Below are positions 23,284 to 39,096 of a stretch of 64,000 bases of DNA, in pieces (the stretch's first letter is position 1; each line of letters opens with the position of its first letter). Source of the stretch: Escherichia coli. GTDB taxonomy: Bacteria; Pseudomonadota; Gammaproteobacteria; Enterobacterales; Enterobacteriaceae. The position numbers were made by a program, and so were the translations under genes. The notes beneath the pieces were generated by a model, which was not told where the DNA came from, did no database searches, and saw nothing but the letters and a program-made list of their open reading frames with translations. The DNA is taken from the NCBI RefSeq assembly GCF_044324875.1, contig NZ_CP172185.1; one strand, given 5' to 3'.

Positions 23284-24015
23284 ATGAATCAACCAATACA
23301 CAATGCTTACTGGTTATCCCGTTTTGACAGCCTTCTCGACAGTGCCCTGTCGCAGCACCGTGCCGTCTCGTTAATCCGGGTGGATTTACGTTTCCCTGAG
23401 TATATGCCTGTCACCATCATGGATCCCGATCCGGATTCAGCGGTGATTTCTCGTTTTTTCGAATCCCTGAAAGCCAAAATCCAGGCTTACCAGCGGAAAA
23501 AACGACGTGCCAACAAGCGTGTGCGTGCAACCACTCTGCGTTATTTCTGGTGTCGGGAGTTTGGCAAGGAAAAAGGCAGGAAACATTATCACGTGATATT
23601 GCTGCTCAACAAAGATACCTGGTGCTCGCCAGGGGATTTCAGCGAACCATCTTCGCTGGCGACGATGATCCTGGAGGCATGGTGCAGCGCCCTGCATCTT
23701 GAGGCCTGGCAAGGCGATGGCCTGGTCCATTTTTCCAGGTGGACGCCTTCCCGTAAACCAGCATCGTCTGATGCTCGCCCTTCTTCCGATGACACGCCTT
23801 TGTCGGGTGGATGTTCTGATACCAGGAAGGCTTCAGAAAAAAAGCCGGGTGAAGCCGCTGTTCTCTGGATCAAGCGTGGTGATGTGGAAGCGCTGCAGAA
23901 AGCCCGGAACAGAGCCAGTTATCTCGTGAAATATGAGACGAAGCAGCATGACGGTTCCGGGCAACGTAATTATGGTTGCAGTCGTGGGCCGGGGCGTCTG
24001 CTGGATGGCAGGTGA
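23284..24015 (+). CDS. YagK/YfjJ-family (Inovirus Gp2-like) protein, paralog 1
   Basis: 243-aa ORF; shares blocks with paralogs 2 and 3 (HYHVILLL / EYHVVLCV; MILEAWCSAL / LILDAWSNVL). Confidence 0.7.
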   Translation: MNQPIHNAYWLSRFDSLLDSALSQHRAVSLIRVDLRFPEYMPVTIMDPDPDSAVISRFFESLKAKIQAYQRKKRRANKRVRATTLRYFWCREFGKEKGRKHYHVILLLNKDTWCSPGDFSEPSSLATMILEAWCSALHLEAWQGDGLVHFSRWTPSRKPASSDARPSSDDTPLSGGCSDTRKASEKKPGEAAVLWIKRGDVEALQKARNRASYLVKYETKQHDGSGQRNYGCSRGPGRLLDGR

Positions 24016-31506: not shown

Positions 31507-32443
31507 TCTCGCACCGGCAGGACAAAAAGACAGCATTGAAATGCGCAAAGTTTATGCAGATTTTATCGCGCAACAGAGTAAAAACGTCAGTTCTGTCATT
31601 GCTCTTGAGGCTGATTTAATGAGTTCCATGGCAATGGACAGCGTGGCGCAGGATTATCCAGATCACGTCATTAATTGCGGCATTATGGAAGCCAATGTTA
31701 TCGGCACAGCTGCAGGGCTGGCCTTAACCGGGCGCAAGCCATTCGTGCATACCTTTACCGCATTTGCCAGTCGTCGCTGTTTTGATCAACTCTTTATGTC
31801 GCTTGATTACCAGGGCGCTAACGTCAAAGTTATAGCTTCTGATGCGGGTGTTGCTGCTTGCCACAATGGCGGAACACATATGTCATTTGAAGATATGGGA
31901 ATTGTGCGCGGGCTGGCGCATTCGGTGGTGATGGAGATGACAGATGCCGTAATGTTCAGCGATATCTTGCGTCAACTCGTTGCACTGGAAGGATTTTATT
32001 GGATTCGTACCATTCGGAAGCAAGCAGCGAGTATTTACGCACCAGGTACAACCTTTACAATTGGCAAAGGGCAGGTATTACGTGAAGGTACGGATGTCAC
32101 CTTAATTGCTAATGGCATTATGGTGGTGGAAGCCCTGGAGGCCGCACGTCAACTTGAGCTGGCTGGGGTAAGTGTAGCGGTGATTGATATGTTTACGCTC
32201 AAACCCGTTGATCGGATGTTAATTAAAAATTATGCCGAAAAAACAGGACGGATCGTAACATGTGAAAACCATAGTATTCATAATGGATTAGGTTCAGCGG
32301 TTGCTGAAGTGCTTGTAGAAACTTGTCCTGTGCCCATGCGTCGGGTGGGGGTTAAAGAGCGGTATGGCCAGGTTGGAACTCAGGACTTTTTACAGAGAGA
32401 GTACGGGTTAACCGCGCAAGATATTGGTAAGCGTACAGCCTGA
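31499..32443 (+). CDS. transketolase, C-terminal subunit; last codons replaced by IS66-family insertion
   Basis: 314-aa ORF; IS left end (32427) lies 17 nt before the stop, so the terminal GKRTA* is IS-derived. Confidence 0.85.
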   Translation: MINLAPAGQKDSIEMRKVYADFIAQQSKNVSSVIALEADLMSSMAMDSVAQDYPDHVINCGIMEANVIGTAAGLALTGRKPFVHTFTAFASRRCFDQLFMSLDYQGANVKVIASDAGVAACHNGGTHMSFEDMGIVRGLAHSVVMEMTDAVMFSDILRQLVALEGFYWIRTIRKQAASIYAPGTTFTIGKGQVLREGTDVTLIANGIMVVEALEAARQLELAGVSVAVIDMFTLKPVDRMLIKNYAEKTGRIVTCENHSIHNGLGSAVAEVLVETCPVPMRRVGVKERYGQVGTQDFLQREYGLTAQDIGKRTA

Positions 32444-32497
32444 ACCGTCTGGTCAGAATCTGACGAATTAGACAAAGTGGTGTCCACCAAATAAGTA

Positions 32498-32899
32498 GTG
32501 GGAACCAAAGTGTCAGATATGCAGAAAAATGTGACTCCCGGCAGGCGAAAAGGCTGCCCTAATTATCCTCCCGAATTTAAACAGCAGCTCGTTGCTGCCT
32601 CCTGTGAACCCGGGATATCCATCTCAAAACTTGCTCTTGAAAATGGCATTAACGCCAATCTGTTGTTCAAATGGCGACAACAATGGCGCGAGGGAAAGCT
32701 GCTATTACCTTCTTCAGAGAGCCCCCAGCTACTTCCTGTGACTCTCGATGCAGCTGCCGAACAGCCAGAATCGCTCGCAGAGGACCCGGAAACCCTCAGT
32801 ATCAGCTGTGAGGTAACGTTCCGGCACGGGACGCTCCGCTTCAATGGCAATGTCAGCGAAAAGCTCCTGACTCTGCTGATACAGGAACTGAAGCGATGA
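32498..32899 (+). CDS. IS66-family accessory protein OrfA
   Basis: 133-aa ORF with HTH-like ...NANLLFKWRQQWREGKL. Confidence 0.85.
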   Translation: MGTKVSDMQKNVTPGRRKGCPNYPPEFKQQLVAASCEPGISISKLALENGINANLLFKWRQQWREGKLLLPSSESPQLLPVTLDAAAEQPESLAEDPETLSISCEVTFRHGTLRFNGNVSEKLLTLLIQELKR

Positions 32900-33243
32900 T
32901 CCCTTTACCTTCCGGGACCAAAATTTGGCTGGTTGCCGGTATCACCGATATGAGAAATGGCTTCAACGGCCTGGCTGCGAAAGTACAGACGGCGCTGAAA
33001 GACGATCCCATGTCCGGCCATGTTTTCATTTTCCGGGGCCGCAGCGGCAGTCAGGTTAAACTGCTGTGGTCCACCGGTGACGGACTGTGCCTCCTGACCA
33101 AACGGCTGGAGCGTGGGCGCTTCGCCTGGCCGTCAGCCCGTGATGGCAAAGTGTTCCTTACACAGGCGCAGCTGGCGATGCTGCTGGAAGGTATCGACTG
33201 GCGACAGCCTAAGCGGCTGCTGACCTCCCTGACCATGCTGTAA
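32896..33243 (+). CDS. IS66-family OrfB
   Basis: 115-aa [34 protein letters not shown]...; 4-bp overlap with orfA. Confidence 0.85.
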
Positions 33244-33292
33244 ATCTCTTTATCCTGGTTGTCACAGAATAAGCCCGGTAAAATACGGGCTT

Positions 33293-34831
33293 ATGAACGA
33301 CATCTCTTCTGACGACATCTTCCTGCTGAAACAGCGCCTGGCCGAACAGGAAGCGCTGATCCACGCCCTGCAGGAAAAGCTGAGCAACCGGGAGCGCGAA
33401 ATAGACCATCTGCAGGCGCAGCTGGATAAACTCCGCCGGATGAACTTCGGCAGTCGTTCCGAAAAAGTCTCCCGCCGTATCGCACAAATGGAAGCCGATC
33501 TGAACCAGCTTCAGAAAGAGAGCGATACGCTGACTGGTAGGGTGTATGACCCGGCAGTACAGCGTCCGTTGCGTCAGACCCGCATCCGTAAGCCGTTCCC
33601 TGAATCACTACCCCGTGACGAAAAGCGACTGTTGCCTGCGGCGCCGTGCTGCCCGAACTGCGGCGGTTCACTGAGCTATCTGGGCGAGGATACCGCCGAA
33701 CAGCTGGAGTTGATGCGTAGCGCCTTCCGGGTTATCCGGACGGTACGGGAAAAACATGCCTGTACTCAGTGCGATGCCATCGTGCAGGCACCTGCACCTT
33801 CGCGGCCCATCGAGCGGGGTATCGCCGGACCGGGGCTGCTGGCCCGCGTGCTGACCTCGAAGTATGCAGAGCACACCCCGCTGTATCGCCAGTCAGAAAT
33901 ATACGGCCGGCAAGGTGTGGAGCTGAGCCGTTCACTGCTGTCGGGCTGGGTGGATGCATGCTGCCGGCTGCTGTCTCCGCTGGAAGAGGCGCTTCATGGC
34001 TATGTCATGACTGACGGCAAACTCCATGCCGATGATACCCCGGTCCAGGTACTGATGCCGGGTAATAAGAAGACGAAGACCGGGCGGTTGTGGGCGTATG
34101 TTCGTGATGACCGCAATGCCGGGTCAGCGTTGGCACCTGCAGTGTGGTTCGCTTACAGCCCGGACAGAAAAGGCATCCATCCGCAGACTCATCTTGCTTG
34201 CTTCAGCGGTGTGCTGCAAGCGGATGCGTACGCCGGGTTCAACGAGCTGTATCGCAATGGTGGGATAACGGAAGCTGCCTGCTGGGCTCATGCCCGCCGA
34301 AAGATCCACGATGTGCACGTCCGCATCCCGTCAGCACTGACGGAAGAAGCCCTGGAGCAGATCGGTCAGTTGTACGCCATAGAGGCGGATATAAGGGGAA
34401 TGCCGGCAGAGCAGCGGCTTGCTGAACGTCAGCGAAAAACGAAACCGCTGTTGAAATCCCTGGAAAGCTGGTTGCGTGAAAAGATGAAGACCCTGTCGCG
34501 ACACTCAGAGTTGGCGAAGGCGTTCGCGTACGCACTTAACCAGTGGCCGGCACTGACGTACTATGCGAACGATGGCTGGGTGGAAATCGACAACAACATC
34601 GCTGAAAATGCCCTGCGGGCGGTAAGTCTGGGTCGTAAAAACTTCCTGTTCTTCGGCTCTGGCCATGGTGGTGAGCGGGGAGCGCTACTGTACAGCCTGA
34701 TAGGGACGTGCAAACTGAATGACGTGGATCCAGAAAGCTACCTTCGCCATGTGCTTGGCGTCATAGCAGACTGGCCGGTCAACCGGGTCAGCGAACTGCT
34801 TCCGTGGCGCATAGCACTGCCAGCTGAATAA
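33293..34831 (+). CDS. IS66-family transposase OrfC
   Basis: 512-aa ORF with N-terminal leucine zipper, CCPNCGG zinc motif and DDE core. Confidence 0.9.
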
Positions 34832-35113
34832 CACATCCCCGTCAATACGGCCCTCGCTGTACGCTTACAGATATTGTGGCGGCAGCCAGAGAGCTATTGT
34901 AATTCATGGAGTTTGTTTACCATTCTGTTTTTCTTAAAAGTGAGTGTCTGTGCGGTCACTAAACTCGGTAATAAAGCAGTTCATTGCAGGATAAGAAGCG
35001 TTTGGTTGTGTCGTTTTACCGTAAGAACCGACCGCCGTATGTAGCCATTAAGCCAGTATTGGTAACGTAGGTGCCCACCTTTTCAATGTACTGCGCCCCA
35101 AATCTTGGACATC

Positions 35114-35893
35114 CTATGAAAAATGTTTAAGTCGATATTGAACCGGACTCATACCATCGAGTTTCTCTTTAATGCGATGGTGATTGTAGTATTCAATGTA
35201 ATCAATTATATCTTGCTTTAGATGATGTAACTTATTGTATTTATTTAGATAGTAACATTCTGATTTTAATGTACTAAAAAAGCTTTCCATTGCTGCATTA
35301 TCTAAGCAGTTACCACGTCGGGACATGCTTTGTGTTATGCCATTATCACTCAACCAACGTTGCCAACGAGGCATCTGATATTGCCACCCCTGATCACTAT
35401 GCAACAAGGGCTTATCGTCTTTATTGAGTTGTTCTACCGCATCTAATAGCATGCTCTTTACCATTGATGCTAATGGGCGCTCAGTAAGGTTATATGAGAC
35501 TATTTCTCCATTATACAGGTCCATGATTGGTGATAAATAGAGCTTCCTGCCATCGACCTTAAACTCAGTGACATCTGTTACCCACTTTTGATTTGGGCGG
35601 TCAGCATAAAATTGTCTCTTCAGTAAATTATTACAAGTTCGCCCCTGTTCTCCACGATAGGCACGGTACTTCTTGCGCCTGATAAGTGAGCTGATACCCA
35701 GTTCCTTCATTAACTTTCTGATGGTTTTACCATTAAGTAAAATGCCCTCGTTACGGCAGGCAAGTCTGATGCGTCGATAACCATAACGCCCTTTATGCTG
35801 ATGGTATATTCTCAATATTACTTGTTTAACAAGTTGATATGGATCTGGCGCATTAAGGCGTTTCACGTGATAGTAAAATGTACTACGTGGCAA
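35114..35893 (-). CDS. IS3-family transposase OrfB (DDE integrase core); probably expressed as OrfAB fusion by -1 frameshift
   Basis: 259-aa ORF with rve-type motifs; its frame stays open upstream into the end of orfA. Confidence 0.8.
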   Translation of the reverse strand: MPRSTFYYHVKRLNAPDPYQLVKQVILRIYHQHKGRYGYRRIRLACRNEGILLNGKTIRKLMKELGISSLIRRKKYRAYRGEQGRTCNNLLKRQFYADRPNQKWVTDVTEFKVDGRKLYLSPIMDLYNGEIVSYNLTERPLASMVKSMLLDAVEQLNKDDKPLLHSDQGWQYQMPRWQRWLSDNGITQSMSRRGNCLDNAAMESFFSTLKSECYYLNKYNKLHHLKQDIIDYIEYYNHHRIKEKLDGMSPVQYRLKHFS

Positions 35894-35952
35894 ATCAGCG
35901 ATAACCAGTAATTGTGATAATGGATGACATTGCCTTAACTCATTAATAATGA

Positions 35953-36453
35953 TTACTTTTTCTTTTGTTCCAATCGTAATTTTTCCTGAGCTAAGGCTTT
36001 CAGCTTTTTTAGATAAGCGTTCTCAACTCTCAGAAACTCAAGTTCTTCCCGTTCACTGATTGTCAGTTGTGTCGAACGATTTCGTTGATAAACAGCAGGA
36101 GTTTTCGGCCTCAAATCTTCCTTTTGTCCCTTCATCGAAAAATCAACCTCACTGTATTTTTTAATCCATTTGGATATGGTGTTAAAAGCAGGGATCCCAT
36201 ACTTCACTGCAGCTTCCCTTATAGAAAGAGAATTATCAATAACATCTCTGACCACATTCAATCTGAAGTTATCGTCATAACGTCTTTTTTGCCCAGTCAG
36301 TGTTTTTAATCCGTGCTTACGGTAAACATAAGCCCATTTCCTTACCGTGCTGGGGTCAATATTGTACATTTTTCCAACAGACTTCAAACTCAGCTCACCT
36401 TCCAGGTATTTTTCTGATACTTCCCTTTTGAATTCTAATGAAAATTTGCTCAT
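35953..36453 (-). CDS. IS3-family transposase OrfA (HTH)
   Basis: 166-aa ORF ending in coiled-coil EQKKK; G-AAA-AAG slippery-like run at its 3' end. Confidence 0.8.
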   Translation of the reverse strand: MSKFSLEFKREVSEKYLEGELSLKSVGKMYNIDPSTVRKWAYVYRKHGLKTLTGQKRRYDDNFRLNVVRDVIDNSLSIREAAVKYGIPAFNTISKWIKKYSEVDFSMKGQKEDLRPKTPAVYQRNRSTQLTISEREELEFLRVENAYLKKLKALAQEKLRLEQKKK

Positions 36454-36519
36454 ACGCTCCTCAGTTACAGATCTGGTGTCTAACTATTGGGGCGCACTTC
36501 ATCAAACTGGTGGACGCCT

Positions 36520-36695
36520 GTTATGGAGCAAAAACATTATCCGCAGAACCCCGCAGATCATTTTCAAATGAGTTAAACTTCAAATGGTTAAACTGGTTTT
36601 GCAACCAGGAGCCTCTGTTGCCCGTATTGCCCGGGAACACGATATCAATGATAACCTCCTGTTCAAATGGCTCAGACTCTGGCAGAACGTAAGGT
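36520..36695 (+). pseudogene. degenerate IS OrfA-like remnant (HTH transposase N-terminus, frame-shifted)
   Basis: two adjacent frames give ...RRSFSNELNFKW... and ...GASVARIAREHDINDNLLFKWLRLWQ..., typical of IS66/IS3 OrfA. Confidence 0.35.
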
Positions 36696-37548: not shown

Positions 37549-39096
37549 ATGCTTAAAAGACGTGATGCTTTTTTAAAGAAAAGCGCGCTGGCAGTGAGTG
37601 TGGCCCTGCTGCTCTCATCTCAGGCTCAGGCTCAGGATATTTTATTCGGACCGATTCAACCTGGCGAAGATAATAGCTTTCTTGTTGGAGATTCAGTAGC
37701 TGGCCGTTCGTCTGGTGACATAAGAAATGTATGGTTGGTGGGTGATAATTCTTTTTTATTAGACTCAAACAGGACTGTGCTTTTGGGGAATAATTCTGGT
37801 GTTGTGAGCTCTCCGGGAAGTGTGAGTCTGGGGCATGATGCACTTATTGCTGACTCTGAATGGGGGACTGTTGCAGGAAAAGAAGCGTCACTTATTTCTT
37901 CTCGTCAGAGCTCGGCAATTGGTGCGTTTTCATCTGTGCAGGATTCTACCAGTTCTGTAGCTCTGGGCCATGGCTCACAGGTGTCGGGAGAAAATAACGT
38001 GGTATCTGTTGGTGCCGGGCCTGAGGGATATGGAGAGAGTGTCAAAGGAGCACCGGAAACCCGCCGGATTATAAATGTGTCTGATGGTATCAATAACACA
38101 GATGCAGCGACGGTAGGGCAACTGAATGAACGATTTGATGATGCACAGGTCTTTTTGTTGCAGACGAATGAAAGAATTGACGAGACAGATAAACGTCTTT
38201 CAACAGTTCATGCTGAACTCAGCAGGGATATTATTGCAGGCACATCGGCAGCGGTGACGTATACAGATGTAACAGCGCTTGCACTTCAGGATGAGATAAA
38301 GGATGGGACGAACAAAGTACGTGATGAGTTGAAATCACAGGGAGACAGTCTGCGTGGTGAGATAGGCGGTGTATACAGAGATGCCCGTGCTCATACTGAC
38401 AGTCAGGTCACAGCAGTACGTGATGAACTGAAGGCAGAGGGAGACAGTCTGCGCGGTGAGATAGGCGGTGTATACAGAGATGCCCGTGCTCATACTGACA
38501 GTCAGGTTACAGCAGTACGTGATGAACTCAGCAGGGATATTATTGCAGGCACATCGGCAGCGGTGGCGTATACGGATGCATCTTCTCTTGCTCTTCAGGA
38601 TGAAATAAAAGAAAAAGCGGATGAAACAGTTCAGGTTTCCCGGGCTTATACAGATAAAAGTGTACGGGATGCCCGTAAAGAAGCGAAAAGCCAGGCAGAA
38701 CATCTCAGCGATGTGCTTGTGAAGAACAGGGCGCAGACGGATGCAGCAATAGCCTCAAATACAGCAGCGATAAGGAATAACAGTCATCGTCTGGATTTGA
38801 CGGAAGCCTGGCAGAAGATGGCGACAGAGAGAATGAATAATATGCAGGAGCAGATTAAAGAGAACCGGAAGGAGTTAAGGGAGAGTGCAGCCCAGAGCGC
38901 GGCACTGGCAGGTCTTTTCCAGCCATACAGTGTTGGAAAATTTAACGCGACAGCAGCCGTTGGTGGTTACCGTGATGAGCAGGCCATTGCGGTGGGCGTG
39001 GGCTACCGTTTCACAGAGAATGTGGCAGGAAAAGTTGCAGTTGCTGCAGGTGGGTCATCCGCATCGTGGAATGCTGGTGTGAATTTTGAGTTCTGA
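37549..39096 (+). CDS. trimeric autotransporter adhesin (YadA-like C-terminal anchor) with repetitive coiled-coil stalk
   Basis: start placed at ATG 37549 (AGGAGA 9 nt upstream; signal peptide [28 protein letters not shown]); C-terminus ...GVGYRF...AGVNFEF. Confidence 0.85.
38317..38514 (+). repeat. 2 x 99-bp in-frame near-perfect tandem repeat within the adhesin stalk
   Basis: units at 38317-38415 and 38416-38514 differ at a few positions; flanked by a ~95-bp dispersed repeat pair at ~38211-38306 and ~38521-38615. Confidence 0.85.

Follow-up and report, generated by a model that had tools for sequence, protein, structure and literature searches.

Why does an insertion sequence (IS) in Escherichia coli appear to lack a target-site duplication (TSD), and why does it lie directly against the remains of another IS? 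The question is raised by a 64,000-nucleotide stretch of contig NZ_CP172185.1 (assembly GCF_044324875.1), referred to here as the window. A sequence-only reading of the window had described, at 35092-36695, an IS150-like element of the IS3 family with unmatched flanks (GTAC versus CTTC), next to an older OrfA-like remnant; nested insertions and an IS-mediated rearrangement had been suggested. The occupied site was compared with empty sites in other genomes. Very probably, the element is an intact 1,415-bp IS of the IS150 group that arrived by ordinary transposition with a TCAA duplication, is nested in a palindrome of an IS66-family element, and did not come to this site by accident.

The boundaries were mapped by joining the outer flanks of the element and using them as a query against complete E. 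coli genomes; the uninterrupted locus was matched in 369 E. coli records at 80% coverage or more. The empty site of strain D10 (locus L004) reads ...CACCTTTTCAAACTGGTGG... (in a longer reading ...GTAGGTGCCCACCTTTTCAAACTGGTGGACGCCTGTTATGGAG..., with the core forms ...GGTGCCCACCTTTTCAAACTGGTGGACGCC... and ...TTTTCAAACTGG...). The occupied site of the window reads ...CACCTTTTCAA/TGTACTGCGCC...GGCGCACTTCA/TCAAACTGGTGG..., or in short form ...TTTTCAA/TGTAC...CTTCA/TCAAACTGG, where the slashes mark the junctions. The sole difference between D10 and the window is the 1,415-bp IS plus 4 bp. The sequence-only reading, which saw no duplication, had named a matching repeat at exactly mapped boundaries as what would speak against it; the exact mapping yields such a repeat, the 4-bp TCAA.

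The same ends were found in 13 full-length E. coli copies (98.4-100% identity), and the terminal inverted repeats (IRs) match at 20 of 27 aligned positions, with the corrected ends TGAAG.../...GTACA. CTTC always follows one of the ends as formerly drawn, and GTAC or GATC always precedes the other, in three unrelated contexts; this constancy suggested that these bases are part of the element. Moreover, the 5-bp tips are present in every other copy, with GTACA/GATCA as a lineage variant. The ends drawn earlier (TGCGCCCC.../...GGGGCGCA, 35092-36496) were both 5 bp too far in, whereas the D10 empty site gives 35087-36501. The supposedly unmatched GTAC and CTTC belong to the outermost part of the IS itself (TGTAC... 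at the left tip, ...CTTCA at the right), and the range 35092-36695 merged the IS with the right-hand part of its own target. The apparent lack of a duplication and the apparent rearrangement were therefore artefacts of ends drawn 5 bp short; given the empty site and the exact TCAA, no IS-mediated rearrangement is needed for this IS in this window. A larger element including the palindromic flanks was rejected, since the flanks vary between copies and the 1,415 bp stay 98-100% identical. For annotation, it is useful that the tips of IS150-group elements start 5 bp outside the conserved TGCGCCCC.

On sequence comparison, the right-hand 'OrfA remnant' is the tnpA of an IS66-family element, and it is the target of the IS rather than its neighbour. 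The intact IS66-family element of locus L003 is 93% identical, over its first ~273 bp, to the joined left and right parts of the remnant, and these two parts are contiguous in the D10 empty site. The blastn alignment of the right part to the L003 element ends at window position ~36694. The translated right part matches Pfam HTH_Tnp_1 (E = 2.2e-11), and the remnant tnpA in L001 and L004 was called 'transposase, frameshifted, incomplete' by the Prokaryotic Genome Annotation Pipeline (PGAP). The tip of the remnant, GTAAGAACCG, is degenerate compared with the GTAAGCG-type IS66 terminal repeat, and tnpB and tnpC are missing through the truncation. The earlier description of the right-hand remnant as IS-derived and frame-shifted was borne out. 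Nesting was also recognised correctly, but not the arrangement: the IS does not lie next to the remnant but inside it, and the first 66 bp of the remnant are on the other side. Comparison with syntenic loci in other genomes, which had been proposed as a check, gave both the empty site and the insertion order. The IS66 left end is widespread without the IS; therefore the IS66 insertion and its decay came first, and the IS150-type insertion followed. Insertion of the IS66 element beside the IS was rejected, because the IS66 element is the split one and the duplication is 3-4 bp long, not the 8 bp of IS66.

The insertion interrupts a palindrome of this IS66 left end, composed in the window of GGTGCCCACC (35070-35079), the loop TTTTCAAACT and GGTGGACGCC (36509-36518), with arms of about 10+10 bp. 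It is located 50-79 bp inside the left end, just upstream of the tnpA start codon. The empty site forms a hairpin whose 10-nt loop contains the insertion point, and the fold of three copies gave z = -2.1, -1.3 and -3.6. Across the IS66 elements that were hit, the consensus between the left end and tnpA is GGTGYCCAC-loop-GTGGRCACC. The symmetry of the palindrome covaries among nine IS66 left ends (0.329 versus 0.18 when shuffled, a value reached by 0 of 500 shuffles); the outer arm positions covary, and the arm core GTCCA/TGGAC is invariant across very divergent IS66 elements. The palindrome ends 0-13 nt before the tnpA ATG, and no promoter consensus was detected when the IS66 left end was scanned for sigma-70 promoters. 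From this position, the palindrome may be a TnpA operator or a hairpin that masks the ribosome-binding site.

Other copies of this IS were surveyed in E. coli chromosomes and plasmids, which gave 10 independent sites, and in at least eight of them the IS lies in the loop of an IS66-family left-end palindrome. These include the window-type IS66 remnant (TSD TCAA), ISCro1 in strain D10 (AAAA), an IS66 element on pCFSAN004179G (TCAA(C)), ISEc8 on pGF4-A (L007; TATT), and an ISEc8-type element on a FDAARGOS_1252 plasmid (CTTA, offset by 2 bp); L010, L100/L101 and L103 provide further junctions with other offsets or orientations. The duplications are 3-5 bp long and also include GTT. Both orientations are about equally frequent (roughly 7:6), and the offsets within the loop are 1-5 bp. 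Only two sites (L009 and L105) are not recognisably IS66, and both have a GTCC motif at a distance of ~10 nt from the junction. No site of the 10 lies in a repetitive extragenic palindromic (REP) sequence. An exact-pattern scan of a species-representative genome collection for the tip of the left IR (IRL) gave no match, the IS being absent from the representative genomes, and no organisms carrying it beyond Escherichia were found in the plasmid collection. The name of the element was not found in the literature searched, and the IR strings matched only unrelated papers there.

The chromosome of strain TUM1886 (L006, 2496-3910) carries the same insertion as the window, with the flank on the side of the right IR (IRR) replaced by unrelated sequence next to IS1. 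Here, in another strain, an IS-associated rearrangement such as had been proposed earlier has really taken place.

Related elements were found in the same target. Five relatives, 52-82% identical, were examined, and four of them split the same IS66 palindrome; these four come from Salmonella (67% identical, TSD TAAA), Enterobacter (69%, ATAT), Caballeronia (ATTT) and Hydrogenophaga (ATCA), the last two being 52-57% identical, and all of them occupy the same loop. The fifth relative, in E. coli L011 (81.5% identical), borders an IS66 left end at the tnpA side; rearrangement of the opposite flank leaves one informative junction. In Salmonella enterica, two genomic locations (L016 and L017) hold identical copies of an IS66-family element with the 67%-related IS in its left-end palindrome, and therefore the interrupted IS66 composite has still moved, or was mobilised in trans. 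A protein-based scan of the species-representative collection yielded more distant relatives only, and these 80 elements (L019-L098, 44-60% identity, many phyla) served for comparison. Exactly two of these, from Caballeronia and Hydrogenophaga, adjoin IS66 genes, and both lie in the palindrome loop. Under a strict criterion, a hairpin loop with a stem of at least 4 bp was found at 21 of 37 reconstructed sites, compared with 99 of 725 positions chosen at random. Insertion into loops accordingly seems to be characteristic of this IS150-type group, which fits what is known of IS1397 and ISKpn1 (PMC1525189). Distant examples in hairpin loops are L022, L042, L051, L059, L068, L070 and L087.

The coding content of the element points to a functional transposase. 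OrfB matches Pfam rve (E = 1.6e-25) and also rve_2, rve_3 and HTH_21, and its catalytic residues D126, D187 and E223 are located in the motifs WVTDVT, HSDQG and AMESFF. The 3' end of OrfA reads ...GAA CAA AAG AAA AAG TAA and the -1 frame is open across it, therefore G-AAA-AAG with the following stop was taken as the frameshift site; a 100%-identical copy bears the PGAP label 'programmed frameshift'. The fused product scored 393 bits against the curated IS3-family model NF033516 (cutoff 160). The rve DDE domain, the OrfB in the -1 frame, the imperfect TG...CA IRs and the 3-4 bp TSD are those of the IS3 family, and OrfB is 55.6% identical to InsK of IS150 over 275 aa (E = 6e-122), which places the element in the IS150 group. 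The family assignment of the sequence-only reading therefore stands, on the model score, the InsK identity and the matching IR architecture, and its -1 OrfA/OrfB layout, poly-A slippery-like run and imperfect IRs were all seen correctly, the run being GAAAAAG directly before the OrfA stop. Its judgement on transposition is also supported: with intact open reading frames (ORFs) and DDE residues, the PGAP frameshift label, and near-identical copies at many different sites, the element is probably transposition-competent.

A probable course of events can be proposed from these data. The IS very probably arrived by ordinary IS3-type transposition, with OrfAB made through -1 ribosomal frameshifting at G-AAA-AAG-stop, and by analogy with the family it might have moved by copy-out/paste-in via a circular intermediate. 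It landed in the loop of a palindrome within an older, already decayed IS66-family left end. This IS and its relatives, down to ~52% protein identity, use the same loop repeatedly, in both orientations and in different IS66-family members. The whole group might prefer the loops of hairpins or palindromes, as IS1397 and ISKpn1 do with REP sequences, and the lineage probably adds recognition of the TGGAC-containing arms; that REPs and terminators are ignored and the GTCCA/TGGAC core is invariant suggests that it also reads sequence. The IRs of the element itself carry TTGGACA or TTAGACA ~20 nt from each tip, and OrfA matches the IS66 TnpA model at E = 2.8e-9, with both proteins sharing the HTH_Tnp_1 fold. 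As a working hypothesis, the DNA-binding domain of the transposase would read the palindrome as a mimic of its own IR box. The odds lean slightly towards an IS150-group lineage (E. coli, Salmonella, Enterobacter and Burkholderiales) that is a specialised 'parasite of a parasite' on the IS66 palindrome, perhaps via such IR-box mimicry.

The flanks might instead have been joined by an IS-mediated rearrangement, either recombination between copies or an adjacent deletion, which would account for a missing TSD and make the OrfA remnant a mere neighbour. Four outer bases indeed differ when the earlier ends are used, and in TUM1886 one flank of the same insertion has really been replaced. However, the D10 empty site leaves nothing but the IS and one copy of an exact 4-bp duplication to be explained, GTAC(A) and CTTC(A) accompany the IS in all its contexts, and the two flanks are parts of a single IS66 left end, so that this explanation is hardly credible for the window.

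Other observations weigh against a non-accidental landing in the IS66 palindrome, and some of them would favour hitch-hiking, in which one or two ancestral IS66 insertions were multiplied by transposition or recombination of the IS66::IS composite. The same composite occupies two Salmonella sites; identical junctions are present in L003, L008, L014 and L104, and also in L007 and L102, and some of the 'independent' sites may thus represent one spread event. Some multiplication by hitch-hiking occurs in Salmonella, yet many junctions, orientations and host elements are left unexplained by it: at least eight distinct junctions lie in IS66 members whose TnpC is 31-99% identical to that of ISEc8, both orientations and several loop offsets are represented, and ISs of 52-100% identity hit the same loop in different bacterial orders. 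As the general explanation it is very unlikely. Most of the distant relatives lie in terminator-like hairpins (a stem plus a T-run) or REP-like palindromes without the IS66 motif or another common sequence, as if any hairpin loop would serve and IS66 palindromes were merely available in these replicons. Such purely structural targeting is improbable for this lineage, since E. coli has hundreds of REPs and terminators but the IS occupies none of them at its 10 independent sites, a GTCC half-site is common to both sites outside IS66, and the TGGAC core of the arms does not vary between very divergent IS66 elements. On the same adverse side, the proposed recognition of the TGGAC box, and with it the choice between structure and sequence, rests on a post-hoc resemblance of motifs; no frameshift-stimulating RNA structure above background was found downstream of the slippery site (z = 0.46); and the length of the TSD in the window is ambiguous between 3 bp (CAA) and 4 bp (TCAA), which are both normal lengths in the IS3 family.

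Table 1. Positions of the IS, its target and a neighbouring IS66-family element in the window
Feature	Position	Strand	Evidence or remark
Complete IS3-family/IS150-group insertion sequence, 1,415 bp, ends 5'-TG...CA-3'	35087..36501	-	empty versus occupied site
TSD TCAA, left copy	35083..35086	.	empty versus occupied site
TSD TCAA, right copy	36502..36505	.	empty versus occupied site
IRL (OrfA-proximal), TGAAGTGCGCCCCAATAGTTAGACACC	36475..36501	-	IR alignment; architecture as in IS150 IRs
IRR, + strand from tip, TGTACTGCGCCCCAAATCTTGGACATC	35087..35113	-	IR alignment; architecture as in IS150 IRs
OrfA, 166 aa, two helix-turn-helix regions	35953..36453	-	ORF list; Pfam HTH_28 (two stretches), HTH_Tnp_1
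-1 frameshift site G AAA AAG, OrfA stop TAA directly after	35956..35962	-	sequence, frames
OrfB, -1 frame, catalytic integrase-like domain, DD(35)E	35114..35961	-	Pfam
IS66 remnant, left part: degenerate IRL tip GTAAGAACCG... through left palindrome arm and half of the loop	35021..35086	+	L003 alignment
IS66 remnant, right part: half of the loop, right arm, 5' portion of tnpA with two frameshifts, truncated at ~36694	36502..36694	+	
Intact ISEc8-like IS66-family element, 2,442 bp, tnpA/tnpB/tnpC	32427..34868	+	8-bp TSD AGATATTG

Further IS66-family sequences are present in the window. The intact ISEc8-like element, whose TSD copies are located at 32419-32426 and 34869-34876, lies within the 3' end of the adjacent gene, which is of the transketolase family. 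This is a third event and specific to the window: a search of 5,426 complete E. coli genomes found its junction with the transketolase gene in none of them. The left-end palindrome of this element (32479-32506) is unoccupied; in pGF4-A, the IS sits in an identical palindrome. Another left-end fragment of the IS66 family, the third, spans 47263-47345, with a GTAAGCG tip and the tnpA ATG at 47343. Its palindrome, GCGTCCATC-TATT-GATGGACAC at 47316-47337, is also unoccupied, and the fragment is cut immediately after the ATG by IS2 (47346 to ~48676), the end of which, TGGATTTGCCCC, starts at 47346. The palindrome GTCCATTTTTCCAGGTGGAC at 23725-23744 fits the target motif as well, and it lies inside an ORF (23284-24015) that is not obviously linked to IS66. 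The match may be fortuitous; 4 strand-matches were observed versus 0.8 expected. The IS66 remnant is followed downstream by a gene for a YadA-like trimeric autotransporter adhesin (37549-39096), which contains internal tandem repeats, with a 33-residue motif present twice; the length of the gene varies by strain, with 1,260 bp in D10 and 1,548 bp in TUM9803.

The insertion itself is a routine nested IS that seemed anomalous because both ends had been placed 5 bp too far in. The wider interest is in the target. In the literature searched, no report of an IS3-family element targeting IS66 was found, and the IS66-family palindrome as a landing pad would be a new target class beside those of IS1397 and ISKpn1 among the sequence- or structure-specific elements of the IS3 family. 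It would also clearly illustrate the exploitation of one IS family by another, and it marks the IS66 left-end palindrome as a candidate functional site. If the reading is true, the lineage gains a safe and horizontally mobile landing site, and IS66 expression is probably affected. Annotators could use it to resolve calls of 'frameshifted' or 'partial' transposases around IS66 elements.

Comparison with IS150 of E. coli K-12 showed a common plan: an OrfA, a -1 frameshift and an OrfB, TG...CA ends, a short TSD and a length of ~1.4 kb. The IRs also share the architecture TGTACTG-CCCC-N-GTTGGACA, which is also given as TGTACTG..CCCC..(G/T)TTGGACA. However, OrfA of the window element is only 26.7% identical to that of IS150; the slippery site of IS150 is A-AAA-AAG inside OrfA, whereas the window element has G-AAA-AAG at the OrfA stop; and the K-12 copy of IS150 is not within an IS66 element. 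The remnant resembles ISEc8, ISCro1 and IS679 of the IS66 family in its HTH_Tnp_1 tnpA and, in degenerate form, in a GTAAG... terminal repeat, but it keeps only ~260 bp of the left end, with tnpA frameshifted and truncated, and tnpB and tnpC absent.

The closest parallels in target choice are IS1397 and ISKpn1, which also belong to the IS3 family and insert near the middle of short conserved palindromes. Their insertions are specific for palindromic units/REP sequences, a specificity reported to be set by the transposase (cited in PMC1525189). The ISKpn1 transposase is 45% identical to that of the window element. The target of IS1397 and ISKpn1 is the REP or the bacterial interspersed mosaic element (BIME) of the host, whereas the palindrome that would be recognised here lies inside another mobile element. 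A preference for a conserved end sequence of another transposable element is also seen in IS4321 and IS5075 of the IS1111/IS110 family; their targets are the terminal inverted repeats of transposons of the Tn21 family. These are DEDD elements with an unrelated mechanism, a single orientation and no TSD; whereas the window IS is a DDE element, found in both orientations and with a TSD of 3-4 bp.

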